Shown here: one piece after another, positions 37,019 to 46,100 of the stretch
How positions within the stretch are numbered: position 1 is the first letter of the stretch
How the letters are laid out: the number at the start of each line of letters is the position of its first letter
Position numbers and translations under genes: made by a program
Notes under the pieces: model-generated
Databases searched by the model: none
Seen by the model: the letters and a program-made list of their open reading frames with translations, nothing else
Told to the model about the DNA's origin: nothing
DNA from: Nitrospira sp.
Lineage (GTDB): Bacteria > Nitrospirota > Nitrospiria > Nitrospirales > Nitrospiraceae
Assembly: GCA_024998595.1 (NCBI GenBank)
Contig: JACOEK010000006.1
Location: 126,433-190,432 of the forward strand
Length of the DNA: 64,000 nucleotides
Direction: 5' to 3'

Positions 37019-37486
37019 CTACGCTTTCAGCGCCGCCAACACCTCTTCCACGTGACCAGGCACCTTCACCTTCCGGAAGGCGGCCTTGATCCGGCCCGTT
37101 GCATCGATCACAAACGTACTGCGCTCAATCCCCATGTATTTGCGGCCGTACATGCTTTTTTCTTTGTAGACCTCATAGGCCGTGCTCACCGCCACGTCTT
37201 CGTCGCTCAACAGTGCAAACGGCAACCCGTACTTGGCGATAAACTTCTGGTGAGAAGCCTTGCCGTCCTTGCTGACTCCGATCACCACCGCCCCGGCCTT
37301 CTTGATCGATGCCAGGGAATCGCGGAAATCGCAGGCCTCTTTCGTACAACCGGAGGTATCATCTTTGGGATAAAAATAGAGCACCACCTGCTTGCCCTTC
37401 AAGCTCTTGAGCGTCAGGACATTGCCGTCTTGATCCGGCAGGGAAAACTCCGGCGCCTTTGCCCCGACGTCTAATCCAGTTGCCAT
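37019..37486 (-). CDS. bcp: Thioredoxin-dependent thiol peroxidase (peroxiredoxin Q)
   Basis: VVLYFYPKDDTSGCTKEACDFRD; GIERSTFVID. Confidence 0.95.
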   Translation of the reverse strand: MATGLDVGAKAPEFSLPDQDGNVLTLKSLKGKQVVLYFYPKDDTSGCTKEACDFRDSLASIKKAGAVVIGVSKDGKASHQKFIAKYGLPFALLSDEDVAVSTAYEVYKEKSMYGRKYMGIERSTFVIDATGRIKAAFRKVKVPGHVEEVLAALKA

Positions 37487-37524
37487 GTTGCGTGCATCTC
37501 CTTCCCAGCCATCTTTCAGCGCCG

Positions 37525-37965
37525 TTACCGTGGACCGCTGCCGATCGTGGGCCGGCTCGTTCCGTATGGATGCTCTCTCCCGGGGCCCTTTGGTGTTTCC
37601 GGATTTCCAAAGGGACGCAAGGCCGGAGAGTCCCAGATGACCTTATCGCCGGGAGCCAAGTTCGCCGCTTCGATGAATTCCTGACGGGCCTGATCCGTTT
37701 GCCCCAAGGCATTCAACGCTAACCCGTAGTTGTAATGAGCCTGCCCGGAATCCGGTGCGGCCTTGATAGCCTGCCCAAAAAAGTCTTTGGCTTCCGCCAT
37801 TTGGCCGGCCAGAAATGCCTGCCGTCCCTGGTTGTTCAACGCGTTCGCATCGGCCTTGGCTCCGTAAGCGAGTTCGAGAGGCACAAGCGGTTTCGGCTTC
37901 TCATGGGTACAAGCCGTACACGACAGCACGGCCACAGCAAAGGCTATCAAGAGACTCACTCTCAT
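37525..37965 (-). CDS. TPR-repeat lipoprotein
   Basis: Lipobox-like LSCTAC; AHYNYGLALNALG TPR motifs. Confidence 0.8.
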   Translation of the reverse strand: MRVSLLIAFAVAVLSCTACTHEKPKPLVPLELAYGAKADANALNNQGRQAFLAGQMAEAKDFFGQAIKAAPDSGQAHYNYGLALNALGQTDQARQEFIEAANLAPGDKVIWDSPALRPFGNPETPKGPGREHPYGTSRPTIGSGPR

Positions 37966-37998
37966 CGCGCTACCTCGTGATATCGTTCGCCAGCGTGA

Positions 37999-38274
37999 TC
38001 AAGGCTTGGCGCGTTTTTTTTGTTCTTCCTCGGACGTCTTTCGGTACATGACATCCCATTCCGGACTGCCTTCCACAATCTGCCTCGTATATGAGGCCAG
38101 TTTCGCCCGGACTTTCTTATCAATGTCCGCTTCCAGGGCAAGTTCCGATGCCACTACGCGTTTGATTTCGCGCAAGACCTTTCCGTCATCCTCGGTCAGC
38201 CTGCATTGAGCGCTTTTCTTCAAGGCGCCAAGTATCAGGTGGGCAAGGTGGCTGGCTTTGTCGTCACTGATCAC
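37999..38274 (-). CDS. DUF507-family protein
   Basis: ISDDKASHLAHLI...EADIDKKVRAKL...EGSPEWDVMYRK. Confidence 0.75.
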   Translation of the reverse strand: MISDDKASHLAHLILGALKKSAQCRLTEDDGKVLREIKRVVASELALEADIDKKVRAKLASYTRQIVEGSPEWDVMYRKTSEEEQKKRAKP

Positions 38275-38307
38275 GGTTAGCGCTCCCGTCCGGAACGGTC
38301 AGGCGGC

Positions 38308-38589
38308 TCACAATATGATACCGCGCTCACGCACCAGCTTCTGTTTGATCATCGTGAACATCTTCTGATAGTCGACCTGCCCTTGCTCGATTTGCCGTTC
38401 GTAGGGCTGCATCATCCGGCGCACCTCGACGTTGAGCCGGTCTTCCACCATGAGCTCCTCGGTCATCGCCTGTTCCAACGACTCGCGGAGCGCCTTTCGA
38501 TCTCCGGTGACCTCGAGATAGCTCAACTCGTGCAATCGAGCGATCACCGAATCCGCCATATGATGAACCCGCTCCTTCGCCAGTCTCAT
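38308..38589 (-). CDS. DUF507-family protein
   Basis: MRLAKERVHHMA...EDRLNVEVR...DYQKMFTMIKQKLVRERG. Confidence 0.8.
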   Translation of the reverse strand: MRLAKERVHHMADSVIARLHELSYLEVTGDRKALRESLEQAMTEELMVEDRLNVEVRRMMQPYERQIEQGQVDYQKMFTMIKQKLVRERGIIL

Positions 38590-38626
38590 GGCAATCGCTC
38601 CCCGCTCGAATTAGTCCTGGAAGACC

Positions 38627-39037
38627 TTATGCAACCGGCTGCGCCGGCTCGATACGTTCCACCCGGATCGTGCTCGCGTTCATAGCCTGCCGCAACTTCT
38701 CCGCATCACCTACGACCCGCCCCACGACGTTCACACGGTCGGCAGGCACAGGATCAGCGCCCATGCTCATCGGCGTGCGTCCGAAGAAAATCGCCAGGAC
38801 CTGGCCGGCTCCCCAAAATGCCACGTCACCGATTTTGACTTGCGTCGTCGCTGTTTCGCGATGATCTTTCACGCCGGGAATTTTAAAATAGAACTCTTCG
38901 CCCCACACATTCAACGGCCCTTCCGCCGGCAAGGCCCGATAGAGCTCTTCGGCCGTTCTCGTTCCCTTCAACTCGGCCTCCAGTTGGACGCCGCCGACTG
39001 TGATTCGAATTCGTTTCATCGTGCCGTTCGTGGTCAT
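38627..39037 (-). CDS. Cyclophilin-like fold protein
   Basis: LPAEGPLNVWGEEFYF, GDVAFWGAGQVLAIFFGRTP, VNVVGRV. Confidence 0.8.
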   Translation of the reverse strand: MTTNGTMKRIRITVGGVQLEAELKGTRTAEELYRALPAEGPLNVWGEEFYFKIPGVKDHRETATTQVKIGDVAFWGAGQVLAIFFGRTPMSMGADPVPADRVNVVGRVVGDAEKLRQAMNASTIRVERIEPAQPVA

Positions 39038-39169
39038 GTCCCCTCATCCGCGCCGTAATACGCTACGCAACACCATAATGACGAAACTCCGCACCAGTCG
39101 CGGACTCTAACTTGTTTATCCCTTGAAATCAAGGTTACAATCCCGCCCGGAAGCTTCGCGACTGCTCTT

Positions 39170-39943
39170 ATGCTGACATCCACGTTCGTCCATTTGAAAG
39201 GTATAGGACCCTCAACTGAGCGGCGTCTATGGGAGGACGGCATTGCCGATTGGGCAACGTTCCGACGGGAGGCTCAACTGATCGGCATCGCGCCCGCGCG
39301 TAAAGCCGCCTACGACGAAGAGCTGGCCCTTGCGCAGGACCATCTCGACCTCCATAACCCCCGCTATTTTGCAGACTGCCTGCACACTCGGGATCATTGG
39401 CGTCTGTTTCAGACCTTCGGTGCCCGGGCACTGTACCTCGACATCGAAACCACAGGGCTCTCGGCCCGCGAGGGACAGGTGACCATCGTCGGACTGCATC
39501 GCCAGGGGCACATGCGCACCTTGATCCAAGGTCACTCTCTCACACAGGAAGCCATTCAAGACGAACTTGACCAGGCCGACCTGCTCATCACATTTTTCGG
39601 AACGGTGTTCGATATGCCCTATCTGCAAACCTGCTTTCCAGGCTTGCGGGTGCCGATTCCGCATTTCGATCTCTGTTTTGCCGCTAGACGCGTCGGCCTG
39701 CAAGGCGGGTTGAAGTCCATCGAACGGGAATTGGACATCGCACGGGAATCGGATCTGCTCCAACTCGACGGATTGGAAGCCGTTCGATTGTGGCAGCGCT
39801 ATCGCGCCGGCAACGCCGCGGCCCTGGATCAACTCATCCGGTACAATGCGGCCGACACCCAGAACCTTGAGCCCCTCGCGGCCTGCCTGTACGAGCGGCT
39901 CACGTTGCGATACGGGCCGCGGTCGCTCGGTCTGGTTGAATAA
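39170..39943 (+). CDS. RNase H-like (DEDD) exonuclease-domain protein with N-terminal HhH
   Basis: HLKGIGP HhH; YLDIETTG, TFFGTVFDMPYL, HFDL, YNAADT. Confidence 0.85.
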   Translation: MLTSTFVHLKGIGPSTERRLWEDGIADWATFRREAQLIGIAPARKAAYDEELALAQDHLDLHNPRYFADCLHTRDHWRLFQTFGARALYLDIETTGLSAREGQVTIVGLHRQGHMRTLIQGHSLTQEAIQDELDQADLLITFFGTVFDMPYLQTCFPGLRVPIPHFDLCFAARRVGLQGGLKSIERELDIARESDLLQLDGLEAVRLWQRYRAGNAAALDQLIRYNAADTQNLEPLAACLYERLTLRYGPRSLGLVE

Positions 39944-39944
39944 C

Positions 39945-40751
39945 GTGGAGACTCCTCGCGGCAGGTGGGAATGGACAGGATACGGGCAGACTGACCGTGG
40001 ACTTGTCCGCTCAAGCAACCAGGATGCCTTCCTCGTCGACAACCGGCGCCGACTGTGGGCTGTCGCCGACGGCATGGGTGGACATCCCGGTGGAGACGTG
40101 GCCAGCCGGATTGTCATGGACACCCTCGCCGACTTTTCACCGAGCCTCATTCGCAGCGCCGTGCCCCCCGGCGAGGACCAAGGCGAACAGCAATCCTTTC
40201 TCCTCACGACCATGGCGGAGCAGGCCCATGCCGCCGTCCGCGCCTATGCCGATCATCACCCGCCCTTCTACGGCATGGGAACCACACTGGTGATGGCGCA
40301 TCTGCTCCCTGAGCCCACCCCCCGCCTCCTCGTTCTCAATGTCGGCGACAGCAGGGCATATCTCGTCAGAGCGGGACGCATCATCCAATTGACTCGGGAC
40401 CATACCCTCATTGACGATTATGTGCGCGACGGCCGTCTCACTCCTGAACAGGCCGCTCGCCATCCGGACCGGCACGTCCTGACCCGCGCGATAGGGCTTG
40501 GCCTCGTCCTGGACAGCGATCTTTTTACGTTCGAGGTCCTCACCGGCGACCTGCTGGTGCTCTGTTCAGACGGCCTCACTAAGATGCTAACCGACGAGCG
40601 CATATTGGAGATCGCTCACTCGCACAAAGACCATCCACCACTCGCGACCGGTGCCCTGATCCAAGCTGCGCTCGATGCCGGCGGCATCGACAACATTACG
40701 GTCGTGGCCTGCGCCATGACTGGTATGCCCGATCAGGGAAATATCCATTGA
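39945..40751 (+). CDS. PP2C-family Ser/Thr protein phosphatase
   Basis: TDRGLVRSSNQDAF, VADGMGGH, GMGTT, NVGDSRAY, LCSDGL, GGIDNITV. Confidence 0.93.
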   Translation: METPRGRWEWTGYGQTDRGLVRSSNQDAFLVDNRRRLWAVADGMGGHPGGDVASRIVMDTLADFSPSLIRSAVPPGEDQGEQQSFLLTTMAEQAHAAVRAYADHHPPFYGMGTTLVMAHLLPEPTPRLLVLNVGDSRAYLVRAGRIIQLTRDHTLIDDYVRDGRLTPEQAARHPDRHVLTRAIGLGLVLDSDLFTFEVLTGDLLVLCSDGLTKMLTDERILEIAHSHKDHPPLATGALIQAALDAGGIDNITVVACAMTGMPDQGNIH

Positions 40752-40777
40752 CACTGCCTCAAGGCACCAGGTAGCCT
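40748..40777 (+). promoter_or_regulatory. Sigma70 promoter upstream of the 40826 CDS
   Basis: TTGACA-N18-TAGCCT, overlapping the PP2C stop codon. Confidence 0.55.
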
Positions 40778-40825
40778 CAAGTCAGTGGCACTCGCAGAGG
40801 AGGCCTCCGGCCTCTGTTCACGTCT

Positions 40826-41737
40826 ATGAACGCACAACCGACTCACTATCGTCCATTTCATCTGATGGTTCGAACGTGGCTTCTACTGGGGCCGCTCGTG
40901 GGCATATTGTGCGTTCCTGCGTCGCGAGCCGAGGAACCTCGTGATCCCGAGGCAACCCTGCGCACGCTGGTTCAGGCGAATGCCGAACGGGATCTGGCCA
41001 CCATGTCGAAATACATGTCACACGATGTGGATGCCATCGGGTATACGATCGATGGACGCAAATACATCGGATGGCCGGATCTGGCGGCCGATATGCGCAG
41101 CGAGTTTGACTCGGTGGTCAAACTGGAAATTCCGATCACCAGTCTTCATATGTGGACCAAAGGCGATATCGCGTGGTTCGCCATGGAGTCGAACTATATT
41201 CGATACAGCAACCCGGAAGACCTTACCCAGCGGATGGTGCTCCCCCTCCGAGAAACAGGGGTCCTGGAGCGCCGGAACGGCCGATGGATCCTCGTGGGCT
41301 GGCACGAATCCACACGTCCGCATGATGGGGAAGCGACACAGACGGCCACAGACAGCGCGGCGCTGCTTCATCGCGCTTCGGATACGCAGCCGGCTGTCCC
41401 GAATGGCGTCGACCTGAGCGGCCAATGGGAAGTGACGGAAATCGAAGACAATAAGAAATACGTCGCCACCCTGGATGCTCAGGGCACCGGTCCTTACACG
41501 TGGCAGGGCGGACAGTTTTCCACCACCAGCTTCAACGATCGACGCTGGCAGGGCACGTGGAAACAAACGGGAAACGATCGCGAGGGCGCTTTTGAAGTCA
41601 TTCTCTCGGAGGATGGCACCGAAGCAAAAGGCATCTGGTGGTATGTGCGTGTCGGCACCAGAGACAATATCCCGCCCCGGCAACATGGCGGCAGCTATCT
41701 GTGGAAACGACTCACCCCGCCTCCGACGGCTCCTTGA
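40826..41737 (+). CDS. Exported SnoaL/NTF2-like domain protein with a C-terminal beta domain
   Basis: LVQANAERDL...YIGW...GDIAWF...RETGVLERRNGRWILVGWHES; second domain starts DLSGQW. Confidence 0.75.
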   Translation: MNAQPTHYRPFHLMVRTWLLLGPLVGILCVPASRAEEPRDPEATLRTLVQANAERDLATMSKYMSHDVDAIGYTIDGRKYIGWPDLAADMRSEFDSVVKLEIPITSLHMWTKGDIAWFAMESNYIRYSNPEDLTQRMVLPLRETGVLERRNGRWILVGWHESTRPHDGEATQTATDSAALLHRASDTQPAVPNGVDLSGQWEVTEIEDNKKYVATLDAQGTGPYTWQGGQFSTTSFNDRRWQGTWKQTGNDREGAFEVILSEDGTEAKGIWWYVRVGTRDNIPPRQHGGSYLWKRLTPPPTAP

Positions 41738-41812
41738 CGGACGGGCGGTACTTCCCTACAGCGCTTCACACACACTCACGGACGGCCGGTCTGTTACAAC
41801 GAGGAGGGGCCT

Positions 41813-42814
41813 ATGAATCGTGCGCTTCTATTGCTAGTCATGTTATTGGGCGTCACGAGTACGGTGTATGCCGGCGGCGGACACGATCACCACGCCATTC
41901 CAACGATGCCGAGTCTCGGCGAAACAAAGCTGACCATCGAGGACCAGACTGTTACGCTCACGTTCGGCCCAGTGGATCTCCCGACCGGCCACGACGGCGA
42001 CTTAGCCTCCAGTATGCCGAAGAAGGTGTTTCAGTTGCCGGAAGACACCTACATGATCGGCTACAAGTCCGAAGTATTCACGAAGGATGGCAAGCCGCTC
42101 CCGAAGAATTACCTGCATCACATCCTTATGTTGAACAATGACAAACCAAGCGTCTCGTGCGATGGAGAGCCCTTGTTTTTTGCCGGGGCCGGACTGGAAA
42201 TGACAGAAGCCCGTTTCCCGGAGGGGTACGGAGTGAAGTTGGGCAAAGGCCAGAACCTCATGTCCGTTGTGGCGTTTTACCACAAGGCCCCGCCGACGAA
42301 AGACGTGATGGCCCGCTTTACGATGTACGTGGCTCCAAAGGGCGCGAAGGTCCAGGAGATGGATGTCTACCAGGTGGGCGTGAACATCGTGTGCTACAGC
42401 AAATTTGCCCAGCGGGGCGCGGACCAGACTGACGAAGGCATCGAGATCAAGCCGGGAGTCTCAGTCCTATCCGCGCCTCTGAAATTCAACATGGATGGCT
42501 GCGTCAAATTCGCCTACCCTCACGGGCATGACGAGCTCCTCATGGTGGCACTTGAGAATAAGACCTCAAAGGAGACGCTCCTCCGCACCGTCCCCGAGGT
42601 CGATGCCGACGGCGCATTCCGGGATTTCCGGCCCCATCAGGTCTACCGTGATGGCAAAGGATTTTCGGTGACGAAACAGGACGACTACGAAATGGTGATG
42701 GTTCACCATCACCTTCTCCAAAACCCCAATACTCACCATGGTATGGGTAACTATCTGCTCTACATGACGCCTGGCGCTTGCCAGCAAACGTCCACTACTG
42801 CCTCGGCGCACTAG
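41813..42814 (+). CDS. Secreted putative copper type II monooxygenase-like (PHM/DBH fold) protein
   Basis: Signal peptide; H102-H103, FPEGYG...H157, PHGH (H237, H239), M311; His-rich mature N-terminus; GAGGAGG SD. Confidence 0.6.
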   Translation: MNRALLLLVMLLGVTSTVYAGGGHDHHAIPTMPSLGETKLTIEDQTVTLTFGPVDLPTGHDGDLASSMPKKVFQLPEDTYMIGYKSEVFTKDGKPLPKNYLHHILMLNNDKPSVSCDGEPLFFAGAGLEMTEARFPEGYGVKLGKGQNLMSVVAFYHKAPPTKDVMARFTMYVAPKGAKVQEMDVYQVGVNIVCYSKFAQRGADQTDEGIEIKPGVSVLSAPLKFNMDGCVKFAYPHGHDELLMVALENKTSKETLLRTVPEVDADGAFRDFRPHQVYRDGKGFSVTKQDDYEMVMVHHHLLQNPNTHHGMGNYLLYMTPGACQQTSTTASAH

Positions 42815-42830
42815 ACGGAACCTCCGGGCT

Positions 42831-42858
42831 CCCACCACAGTGCAAGTGCTGTGGTGGG
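42831..42858 (+). terminator. Hairpin after the 42814 stop
   Basis: Perfect 10-bp stem CCCACCACAG/CTGTGGTGGG; no U-tract. Confidence 0.45.
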
Positions 42859-43184
42859 CTACCGCCGTCCAGGCGTCAGCACAAACACGCTGGCCCGTCT
42901 CCGGACTCCGGTTCCCAATCCGAACACTTCTCACGACTCAGTGACAACGAATCTGGTCACTTTTTTCCGCTTCGAATCGTATCTCCCCTACGGAAGTGGA
43001 ACCGCCCCCTCAGGCGGCGGACTGGGATTGTCAAGAAGGTGTATGATATTGAACCAGTCATGCAGTTCAAGCGGTTAGGGAAGGACAGATTTGTTCGCCT
43101 AAGAGGGAGAGCATGTTCATCACTGTACGGTGGTGCATTCCCCGGGGCACACACAGCTACCGGGCGTATTGAGCGCGCCCCTGC

Positions 43185-46100
43185 ATGAAGGCCATGAGAT
43201 CCTCGATGTCCTTGCTCGAACCCTCGCTACATATCCTCCTCATCAATGAGAATCCCGACGAAATCAAGCTGGTGACGACCAGCTTGAGAAGCTTCTTCGT
43301 CGGCTGCCGCATCGAAGCCGGTTACTCGTCTGAAGATGCTCTTGCATTCAGCCGCCAGGGCGACTGGCATATCATCCTCGTTGATCAAGATCTCAATCCG
43401 GAACGGGGCCTCGAGCTGCTCGCACGCCTTCGCCGCAATGCCCCCTACGCCGCGATTCTGCTTCAGACCAACGAGAGTGACTCGCAAACTGCCGTTCAAG
43501 CGCTGCAACACGGAGCCGACTTTTTGCTGTTCAAACGATCTCCCGGCTTTATCACTGAACTGCTCTTTTCGGTACAGGAGGCTCTCGAAAAGCGCGACCT
43601 GCAAATGAAGCTGGACCACACGTTTCAGCGACACTTGCGCGTCATTGAAACATTAAGCGACCTATTGTACGAACTCGATGCGGAAGGTCGCTTTGTCTAT
43701 GTGAGTCCAACCGTCACCGTGATGCTTGGATATACCGCAGAGGAGCTGGCCGGACGACACTACTCCCTCTTGCTTCCTCCTCAACAGGAGCCAGCCGCCC
43801 GTTTCCGGTTGAACGAGCGCCGGGCAGGCAGCCGTTCGATACGCCAAGTGGAATACACTCTGTACCGCAAGCCCCTCCCGGATAGTCCGCCGGTACCCAT
43901 CATCGTAGAAGTGACGGCGAAGGGACTGTTCGATTCCACCAATCGTTACCTCGGAACCGTCGGATTGCTACGTGATCTTTCTCAGCAGAAGGCCCAACAG
44001 ATCCGCTTGGCTGAACTGGAGTCACGCCTCCAGGAGACCGACCGCCAACTGACCCTCTCGCGTGAAGCAGCCCGGGTCTCTCGCCAATTACAGCAGCCCC
44101 TGACGTCGTTGCTTCAGGACTCACAACGATTGCTGACGTCCATCCAACACAGCCGGATCGAGCAACATGTTGAAACGATGATCGCCCAGGCTTCGCAAGC
44201 GAGCCAACTCGGGCATCAACTGGCAGAAGCAATTCGCGCTCACCCCATAGAATTTGTGCCTCTCGACCTGAACGATGTACTTCAGACGGTTGTCCAAACT
44301 GCACAAGGTGAGGCAGGCGAATCCGGATTGCTGCTTGCCACTCATTTTGCAGGCAACCTTCCAATCATCCTCGGTTCGCGTTCAGCTCTGGAAAATCTTG
44401 CGCACATCCTGCTCACCTATGCCCGTCACTACACCGTCCAAAACATGCCTCATCGGCTCATCCTGCAAACAGCACCACTGACCATGGAAACCCGTGGGGC
44501 TATCCCGCAAGAAGTCACGCCACCCTCGCGGCATGTTCAGACGTATGCGAGCTTTACGATTCGGGGAAGGGTTGGCGATCTCCGCCTAGCTCCGGACAGT
44601 ACACAAGGTTGCGACCATCCGGCGGAGAGTTTGGTTCAAGCACATCAGATTGTTCAGGTGCATCGAGGCGCCCTCGAAGTCGAACATACACCGGACCGTA
44701 GTTTGGCCATCACAGTTCGCATTCCTGCTTCAGATGACCTCTCGCTCACACCTCAGCATCGTGAGTCACCGCCGCCACCAACCTCGCCTACCCAGTTCGA
44801 TGTACACTATCCCTCCCGGTACGTCCCCGGGCAACGTCATGAACGCCGCCGCTCAGAACGCAAGCCATTCTCCTTACCTGTACAGTTGTCGATCGGCGGT
44901 ACGACCCTTCGGGGCCTGTTGCGCAATATGAGTACCGAAGGGGCGCTCCTGACCATCCGGGGGATGGAGACGTCCATCCACCTTCAACCGGCCTATGTCG
45001 TCATCAAGACACCGGTGAGTTTCCTGGAACTGCAGGGCGTGGTGCATGAACGACCATCTGCGGGTTTGCCTCTACCAGCCATCAAAGAGTTCGTTATTGC
45101 TTTTGCCCTCGCTGTCGATCATGAACGCAATGTGCTCCGATCGCTGCTTGAGGGATTACAGGATGGTTCGCCACAGATCACCTTCGAAGGTTTGATTCTC
45201 CCTCCCTCCCTGGGGACAGTGGGCCCCACCACCGATCTCATGTCATCTCTGCCTATACCGGAGGACCGGCGGGAAGCCGTTCGACTCAGCATGTCCTGTC
45301 CCGTTCAGGTGGATGAATCCCAGGGCTCCCCGACGCGTTGGTTCGGCCTGATCGTAAACTTGAGCCTGGACGGGGCATGCCTCGAACTGCCTTCAGATGT
45401 CGTCTTGGCCGGACTTCCGCAAGTCATCCAGCTGAGCCTTGTGGAATCGATCGAAATACTCCCTCACAGTTCCCAATCGCAAGGCTCTGACCAACGATTG
45501 ACGGGGCATATCGTCTGGAGACGTGCTGCGGAAAGGACTCCCGCACCCTCGCTCGCCGCAACAGGAGAACAGATCGGTATACGCTTTGACTCATTGTCCC
45601 CCGCCCAAGAACAGAGACTTCGTGGCCTCATGGAACCTGCGTTCCACGCGGGTCAGGATCCCGCCGAACAGCAGTCTGACGCTCCCGTTCTTACCGTGCC
45701 GCACACCCTTCAAAATCGTGACGGGTATACGATTGCGTTGCGGCATGACTTCCCCGCACTAGGCGGCGGAGAGCATGATCCCCTGGTGCTCCTCTGCCCG
45801 GGATACGGCACGACGCAGCACGCCTACGTGGCCCTGGCGTATACGCTGGCCTGCCGCGGGTTTCATGTGCTGCGCTATGATCACAGCCGCCACATAGGGC
45901 TCAGTGACGGCGACCCTTCGCAGACCACCTTCACCTCTCTCGAAGACGACTTGGATGCAGTATTGACCTTCGCCCAAGACAATTGGCCGGAAAGGCCCCT
46001 CACTCTCCTGGCGCCGGACCTCCTCGGTCGAATCGCACTGCGAAGACGAGATTGGCACAGACGACTTCGTCGCCTCCTTCTGCTCAATCCGATACTCGAC

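Follow-up and report, generated by a model that had tools for sequence, protein, structure and literature searches.

A stretch of 64,000 nucleotides from Nitrospira sp. (assembly GCA_024998595.1, contig JACOEK010000006.1, positions 126,433 to 190,432 of the forward strand), here called the window, contains at positions 41813-42814 of its plus strand a gene, single-copy in its genome, whose 333-residue product (P0001) is very probably a protein with the fold of peptidylglycine alpha-hydroxylating monooxygenase (PHM) and with putative copper sites. By analogy with known enzymes, there is about an even chance that P0001 acts as a periplasmic two-copper monooxygenase working with the product of the gene directly upstream. 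PHM, dopamine beta-hydroxylase (DBH) and tyramine beta-monooxygenase (TBM) are the classic examples of non-coupled two-copper monooxygenases, whose two copper sites, CuH and CuM, face each other across an interdomain cleft, 4-14 Å apart, and to our knowledge they have been characterised in eukaryotes only. Nitrospiraceae, the family to which the window belongs, are the principal oxidisers of nitrite in soils, waters and treatment plants.

Predicted fold and candidate copper ligands

The structure of P0001 was predicted with AlphaFold2 from a 47-sequence alignment spanning 16-88% identity, and the resulting model is all-beta and made up of two halves (mean predicted local distance difference test score, pLDDT, 87.7; predicted template-modelling score, pTM, 0.84). 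When the model was compared with the PDB using Foldseek, ranks 1-28 were all occupied by rat PHM (E 1.8e-10 to 6e-8), with matches extending over the whole length (approximately 317 columns aligned to a target of 305 residues), and ranks 29-30 by human DBH (E approximately 4e-7). The PHM/DBH-like double jelly roll proposed in the original prediction, which had been made from the sequence alone, is thus borne out by a predicted two-domain beta-sandwich whose top 30 structural matches are PHM and DBH.

Later Foldseek matches (approximately 3e-4 to 1e-3) comprised generic double jelly rolls, such as PRD1 P3, and PNGase F-type structures, including 7zgn (5.6e-4) and 1pgs (1.2e-3). The presence of the latter in the list could point to a metal-free PNGase F-like amidase, or to a carbohydrate- or peptide-binding protein sharing the double beta-sandwich. 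However, these matches fall behind those to PHM by six to seven orders of magnitude, and the family has invariant His and Met residues at the PHM ligand positions rather than an acidic catalytic set, which makes this explanation very improbable. It was rejected on match strength (approximately 6e-4 to 1e-3 versus 1e-10 for PHM).

The residues on which the comparison with PHM turns are listed below. Counts refer to an alignment of 162 Nitrospira-clade cluster representatives (63-93% identity), and PHM numbering was taken from the sequence of the PDB crystal chain (PAM residues 45-356).

41813-42814, plus strand: coding sequence of P0001, the predicted PHM-fold protein (open reading frame and translation; 333 residues)
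41990-41992, plus strand: H60, within the loop that follows GPxDLP, a second candidate for the role of third CuH ligand (161 of 162 in the clade)
42116-42121, plus strand: H102-H103, corresponding to the PHM CuH ligands H107/H108 (hhalign; 162 of 162)
42197-42199, plus strand: E129 of the AGxE motif, invariant family-wide, with no PHM ligand counterpart (162 of 162)
42281-42283, plus strand: H157, candidate third CuH ligand, at +2 from the PHM H172 position (162 of 162 in the clade)
42521-42529, plus strand: H237-G-H239, corresponding to the PHM CuM ligands H242/H244 and followed by the invariant D240 (hhalign; 162 of 162)
42743-42754, plus strand: M311-G-N313-Y314, corresponding to M314/N316/Y318 of PHM (MCNLY) (hhalign; M311 and Y314 162 of 162, N313 161 of 162)

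These correspondences were obtained with hhalign, which was usable in local mode, the global run having collapsed to a 15-column alignment. The local profile-sequence alignment between the P0001 family and PHM covers 240 columns and pairs H102/H103 with H107/H108, H237-G-H239 with H242-T-H244, and M311 with M314, as well as N313 with N316, Y314 with Y318, and the FAGAG...FPEGYG region with YAWAR...LPKGVG of PHM. The proposed equivalence of these five ligands to those of PHM rests on the agreement of this alignment with the fold match, the sequence alone being insufficient for it.

A script check of the translation found the six residues named in the original prediction (H102, H103, H157, H237, H239, and M311), together with the motifs FAGAG (123-127), FPEGYG (135-140), and GGGHDHH (21-27). 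The spacings noted there were also recovered, with 135 residues between HH and HxH in both proteins (H102-H237 versus H107-H242) and 72 residues between HxH and Met (H239-M311) versus 70 in PHM. The claim of a full PHM ligand pattern, by contrast, was sustained only in part: five ligands (HH, HxH, and Met) align exactly, but the third CuH histidine does not, since H157, rightly described as slightly off register, falls two residues beyond the H172 position in the hhalign alignment. The spacing from H103 to H157 is 54 residues, versus 64 in PHM. Overall, P0001 contains histidines at positions 24, 26, 27, 60, 102, 103, 157, 237, 239, 275, 298-300, 308, 309, and 333, cysteines at 116, 194, 230, and 323, and the methionine at 311.

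Conservation was assessed at two depths. Within the clade, 87 of the 333 columns are invariant, and they include all six candidate ligands as well as E129, Y235, D240, H299, Y314, and three of the four cysteines; H24, H60, and N313 are each present in 161 of the 162 sequences, and the tail histidines H26 and H27 in 132 and 136, respectively. In the wide-family alignment (47 sequences, reaching down to 16-20% identity), the columns conserved at 90% or more are only those of H102, H103, H237, H239, M311, and E129, together with some Pro and Gly; E129 was also invariant in a further alignment of relatives (A3). The ligand pattern is considered to be beyond chance because none of the six residues varies among the 162 sequences and HH, HxH, and M311 reach at least 90% in the wide alignment, and five of the six PHM ligands characterise the family as a whole. 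The expectation that the ligands would be conserved in homologues therefore held for HH, HxH, and Met across the wide family, but for H157 in the Nitrospira clade only. In distant relatives, position 157 is mostly Asn, often (not always) with a His one residue earlier ('mfHNPT'), and the His-bearing loop after GPxxLP, which carries H60 in P0001, recurs in most of the wider family.

At least 570 homologues were found, and every named one is annotated as 'hypothetical', including those of N. moscoviensis (ALA57876.1 / WP_053379119.1) and Ca. N. bockiana. When 1.8 billion cluster representatives were searched exhaustively with HMMER, 172 proteins were returned at E <=0.001, among them full-length relatives with 20-30% identity, and a homologue search seeded with a diverse alignment returned Nitrospira sequences only, with no Pfam-annotated relatives. 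None of the 47 relatives matched PF01082 (Cu2_monooxygen) or PF03712 (Cu2_monoox_C), and a search of the whole source genome with the PF01082, PF03712, and PF07712 models gave no match. Sequence searches of the PDB yielded chance matches only for P0001 alone and none for the 47-sequence profile, and similarity between human DBH and P0001 was undetectable by HMMER. A search of 301 genomes of the phylum with P0001 found a homologue in all 50 sampled Nitrospiraceae genomes (nine genera), some with two copies, and in four genomes of sister families, with a patchy distribution elsewhere in the order; the rest of the sample had none.

Some of these features would also suit a PHM-fold redox protein with a different chemistry, such as an oxidase, a peroxidase-like protein, or an enzyme turning over nitrogen oxides or superoxide in the nitrite-oxidiser periplasm, possibly with a single functional copper site or with a site built with E129 and D240. 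Both of these residues are invariant family-wide with no counterpart among the PHM ligands, the third CuH ligand is not conserved, and P0001 is universal in Nitrospiraceae while patchy elsewhere in the order. Nevertheless, the five strictly conserved residues are exactly PHM ligands, and no positive evidence was found for any specific alternative reaction, so that we regard this explanation as distinctly unlikely.

The upstream partner and the gene neighbourhoods of relatives

The gene directly upstream of P0001, which was absent from the original prediction, is its actual conserved partner. Its two features are the following:

40826-41737, plus strand: conserved partner gene, encoding a putatively exported 303-residue protein with an NTF2-like (SnoaL_3) domain and a Trp-rich beta domain (Pfam, AlphaFold2, Foldseek)
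41411-41713, plus strand: Trp-rich small domain, partner residues 196-296 (approximately 100 residues, eight predicted beta strands)

The N-terminal half of the partner belongs to SnoaL_3 (Pfam E 4e-13), and Foldseek relates the AlphaFold2 model of the partner to NTF2-like dehydratases and CaMKII hub domains, in a search that the NTF2 half dominated and in which the fold of the small domain was not identified. The Trp-rich domain had no match in Pfam or the PDB, and profile searches gave chance-level matches only. Its linkage to P0001 was examined in metagenome loci with an orthologue of at least 68% identity and enough upstream sequence: all 55 of these loci have the small domain immediately upstream in the same orientation, and 45 of 50 have the NTF2 half there as well. 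N. moscoviensis and two genomes of sister families retain the pair. In Ca. N. bockiana (L003 6416-6868), the upstream gene encodes the small Trp-rich domain alone (150 residues, without the NTF2 half), and P0122, a protein of 500 residues, carries the small domain (62% identical, E 7e-42) as an N-terminal fusion to a PHM-like domain. This conserved adjacency, together with the natural fusion, provides good evidence for joint action of the two proteins as a unit.

The small domain contains the invariant residues W201, W245, W271, and W272 and the motifs NxREG and IPPR, and is more conserved than the NTF2 half. The partner lies in a block (37019-41737) comprising AhpC/Redoxin, TPR, two DUF507, and cyclophilin-like genes on the minus strand, followed on the plus strand by genes for an RNase_H_2-like exonuclease, a PP2C phosphatase, the partner, and the PHM-like protein. 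The order of this block is conserved in the window, N. moscoviensis, and Ca. N. bockiana, and its plus-strand part is also seen in many metagenome loci of Nitrospira type.

Outside Nitrospiraceae, the genes of the closest relatives (42-54% identity) adjoin genes for TonB-dependent receptors, as seen in four contexts independent of each other. In the first, found in two non-Nitrospira metagenome loci (L004 1743-9262, and L109), the order is receptor, small domain (144 residues), PHM-like protein, weak SnoaL_3 lipoprotein (190 residues), PHM-like protein, and receptor, the small domain and the weak SnoaL_3 protein being separate genes interleaved with two PHM-like paralogues. In the contig encoding P0123, a TonB-dependent receptor gene lies downstream and a FadL/TodX-type porin gene upstream. 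In L143 (2951-12310), a DyP-type peroxidase gene and two TonB-dependent receptor genes surround two PHM-like frames (49% and 42% identity to P0001, tblastn), and in L189 (473-5959) the fusion P0122 is preceded by a TonB-dependent receptor gene and followed by that of a CCP_MauG di-haem peroxidase. Among more distant relatives, P0183 (L019 82-1362) combines a PHM-like with a TonB C-terminal domain in a single chain, and P0168 (677 residues) has two PHM-like domains in tandem; the short contigs of P0183 and P0187 offered little or no gene context. The distant subfamily is spread over at least 310 species. The 80 loci retained from it, most of them of Acidobacteriota, had no conserved neighbours: a few share SurA-like, biotin carboxylase, or MerR-like genes, the one other recurring item was an artefact of antisense ORFs, and the subfamily offered no clue to function.

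It is in these neighbourhoods that the main rival to a catalytic role arises, namely that P0001 is a non-catalytic periplasmic protein that binds copper at its PHM-like His and His/Met sites, its His-rich tail, and its other conserved histidines, relays it, and forms with its partner a module for acquiring or buffering copper (or another metal), which in relatives would dock to TonB-dependent outer-membrane receptors. The four receptor contexts and the TonB fusion speak for such a module, and the MauG-like di-haem peroxidase of L189 and the DyP peroxidase of L143 recall uptake operons of the MbnP/MbnH type (PMC9426467). The His-rich tail, at least six further conserved histidines, and the lack of a reductant partner encoded nearby point in the same direction. 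However, two separate PHM-type ligand sets, Met included, have been kept over a very large evolutionary distance, and the equivalents of the PHM substrate contacts, N313 and Y314, are conserved (161 of 162 and 162 of 162, respectively). Moreover, a paralogue of P0001 resides in an oxygenase gene cluster, and no TonB-dependent receptor gene is adjacent in the Nitrospiraceae P0001 loci. On balance, metal handling without catalysis is regarded as possible, though not probable.

The paralogue just mentioned is the second copy present in some Nitrospiraceae (61-67% identity) and is absent from the genome of the window. Its cluster (L162 2063-7737; also L114, L136, L102, and L103) encodes a protein of approximately 1600 residues with repeats, two FGE-sulfatase-domain proteins, a 173-residue protein, a HalD-like 2-oxoglutarate-Fe(II) oxygenase, and a Rieske/VanA-type oxygenase, and looks like an oxidative small-molecule pathway. 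This company of oxygenase-type genes is enzyme-like and speaks for the monooxygenase reading of P0001.

Expression, export and downstream sequence were also inspected, and gave the following features:

41801-41809, plus strand: ribosome-binding site GAGGAGGGG, read from the sequence, 4 nucleotides before the ATG
41813-41872, plus strand: Sec signal peptide, residues 1-20 (MNRALLLLVMLLGVTSTVYA, followed by G), with n, h, and c regions read from the sequence
41873-41893, plus strand: His-rich mature N-terminal tail GGGHDHH, residues 21-27, directly after the cleavage site
42831-42858, plus strand: 11-bp perfect hairpin without a U-tract, 17 nucleotides after the stop codon (fold -31.9 kcal/mol, z -2.4)

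The signal peptide forms a helix at residues 3-12 of the model, with low pLDDT, and ends in a typical cleavage site (VYA/G); neither a lipobox Cys nor a twin-Arg was found in this region. P0001 would thus be exported by the Sec pathway to the periplasm, where the mature protein would begin with the GGGHDHH tail, disordered in the AlphaFold2 model (pLDDT <50).

Transcripts of the gene were found in four bioreactor or wastewater metatranscriptome runs, whose contigs cover it at 99% identity or more; being assembled, these contigs show presence and not abundance, with possible DNA carry-over. In three of the four runs they begin at 41778-41786, approximately 30 nucleotides upstream of the ATG, which may be a transcript 5' end within the 75-nucleotide intergenic spacer, and one contig bridges the end of the partner gene into the P0001 gene. 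At the other side, one contig ends at 42868 and none in the four runs covers 42875-42961; the hairpin at 42831-42858 is likely the transcript end. Scans of the plus strand for sigma-70 and terminator consensus sequences gave nothing useful.

The original prediction had also implied a link to the signalling locus downstream. The signalling gene there, encoding 1400 residues, is separated from the P0001 gene by a gap of 370 nucleotides and the hairpin, with no bridging RNA contig, and it adjoins the P0001 gene within Nitrospiraceae only, the adjacency being lost in sister families. The functional tie to this cassette was consequently rejected as unsupported, and the association looks like synteny only. 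An open reading frame of 136 codons starting with TTG (42778-43188, plus strand), which stretches across the spacer between the P0001 gene and the signalling gene and overlaps the 3' end of the former and the hairpin, had no Pfam match and is probably not a gene.

Putative reaction, substrate and reductant

If P0001 is a two-copper monooxygenase, the following scheme can be envisaged by analogy with PHM, DBH, and TBM. The exported protein would acquire copper in the periplasm, where H102, H103, and a third histidine (H157 or H60) would form a CuH-like electron-transfer site, and H237, H239, and M311 a CuM-like site for O2 activation. O2 would bind to reduced CuM, leading to hydroxylation of a C-H bond in a substrate that occupies the interdomain cleft, and CuH would supply the second electron. 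The reductant could not be ascorbate, which serves in animals; its place would presumably be taken by a periplasmic cytochrome or some small reductant. The partner could bind and present the substrate, process the hydroxylated product, or be the substrate itself; its two small domains, of ligand-binding-type folds in the models, suggest that the substrate is a small molecule.

Several observations weigh against this scheme and were taken into account in its grading. As far as sequence is concerned, P0001 gave zero matches to Pfam and NCBIfam up to E 10, PF01082 and PF03712 included, and the resemblance to PHM is marginal, with an hhalign score of 20.7 versus 14.6 +/- 2.3 for 80 shuffled PHM sequences, one of which reached 20.7 (P approximately 0.01-0.04, reported as 0.038). 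As far as structure is concerned, the whole-chain TM-score to PHM is just 0.40-0.50, the best value being that for the 'closed' H108A/citrate form 6ALA, and these modest values probably reflect a different relative orientation of the domains. The third CuH ligand is also imperfect: PHM H172 aligns with F155, and H157, whose conservation does not extend to the wide family, sits two positions beyond it, in a loop just past the end of strand 149-155. However, the H172A variant of PHM keeps two bound coppers though its activity collapses (2025 review, PMC12164859), so that a two-copper site is compatible with an imperfect third CuH ligand. With regard to the electron supply, no donor gene was found near P0001 in Nitrospira, with neither a cytochrome nor a DOMON/b561 gene nearby. 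Finally, the adjacency to TonB-dependent receptors in four contexts and the TonB_C fusion, as well as the many extra conserved histidines and the His-rich tail, fit metal handling as well as catalysis.

The nature of the substrate is constrained by one further difference, which belongs to the same group of adverse observations. R240, the carboxylate anchor of PHM, aligns with the invariant Tyr235 of P0001 (low-confidence alignment). Peptidylglycine amidation, offered as a substrate option in the original prediction, is unlikely for this reason, and from the alignment the substrate is probably not a C-terminal glycine.

A more speculative reading, which we consider unlikely, takes the PHM-like protein and the Trp-rich partner domain as a new periplasmic oxidative module serving TonB-dependent import. 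In one version, the copper enzyme would hydroxylate an imported metal chelate or other cargo, thereby releasing or transforming it; in another, P0001 would modify its own partner post-translationally, giving rise to a metal-binding or redox cofactor. In Nitrospiraceae, the module would have become a core component of the periplasm that is independent of a receptor.

Comparison with known systems

The interest of the P0001 family lies in its being unseen by Pfam and NCBIfam and yet a core, strongly conserved (63-93% identity), and transcribed metalloprotein candidate of Nitrospiraceae. If P0001 is an enzyme, it would bring ascorbate-free PHM-type chemistry together with a new obligate partner domain; if it handles copper, it would add an unrecognised component to the copper supply of nitrifiers. 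The obligate upstream partner with its Trp-rich domain and the TonB-receptor neighbourhood of the non-Nitrospiraceae relatives are new here. Literature searches, including those on bacterial PHM-like or binuclear copper monooxygenases, found nothing on the P0001 family, the protein goes unmentioned in a recent survey of copper systems in Nitrospira (PMC13374858), and no bacterial member of PHM/DBH/TBM was found to be described in the searchable literature.

As regards gene context, receptor-linked copper-uptake operons with MbnP/MbnH-like genes have been described (PMC9426467), and L189, L004, and L143 likewise pair a receptor with a periplasmic His/Met/Trp-rich protein. The likeness of P0001 to MbnP/MbnH and to MopE/CorA-type modules is an analogy of context alone, whereas the Nitrospira locus lacks a receptor or MauG gene. 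PNGase F (1PGS) shares the superfold, with two eight-stranded beta-sandwiches, but is a hydrolase without copper ligands.

Nod19 (PF07712, stress up-regulated Nod19 or SURNod19; MtN19-like), a plant and fungal protein that is secreted and whose function is not known, is the sole Pfam family touched, by two distant relatives of P0001 with E-values of 0.0095 and 0.075, matches that fall well short of the gathering score; P0001 and its genome gave no match to this model. Nod19 transcripts are targeted by miR398, a microRNA of the copper economy (PMC3882225). The relation suggested by these sequence matches is a lead and not a placement.

DBH and TBM (human DBH, 4ZEL), the second-best structural match, have the same ligand sets as P0001 and, like it, no carboxylate-binding Arg, and their substrates are without a C-terminal carboxylate; unlike DBH, P0001 has no DOMON or dimerisation domains. 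The best structural match is PHM (rat PAM core; 1PHM, 1OPM, 1SDW, and 6ALA), which is also a secreted two-domain beta-sandwich. Compared with PHM, P0001 shows approximately 13-14% identity, has four cysteines instead of ten, would work in a bacterial periplasm, and so with no ascorbate, and lacks a PAL domain, whereas it possesses E129, D240, the His-rich tail, and an obligate partner made up of NTF2 and beta domains. P0001 is like PHM, DBH, and TBM in its predicted fold and in five ligands, and stands outside these families as their sequence models define them.

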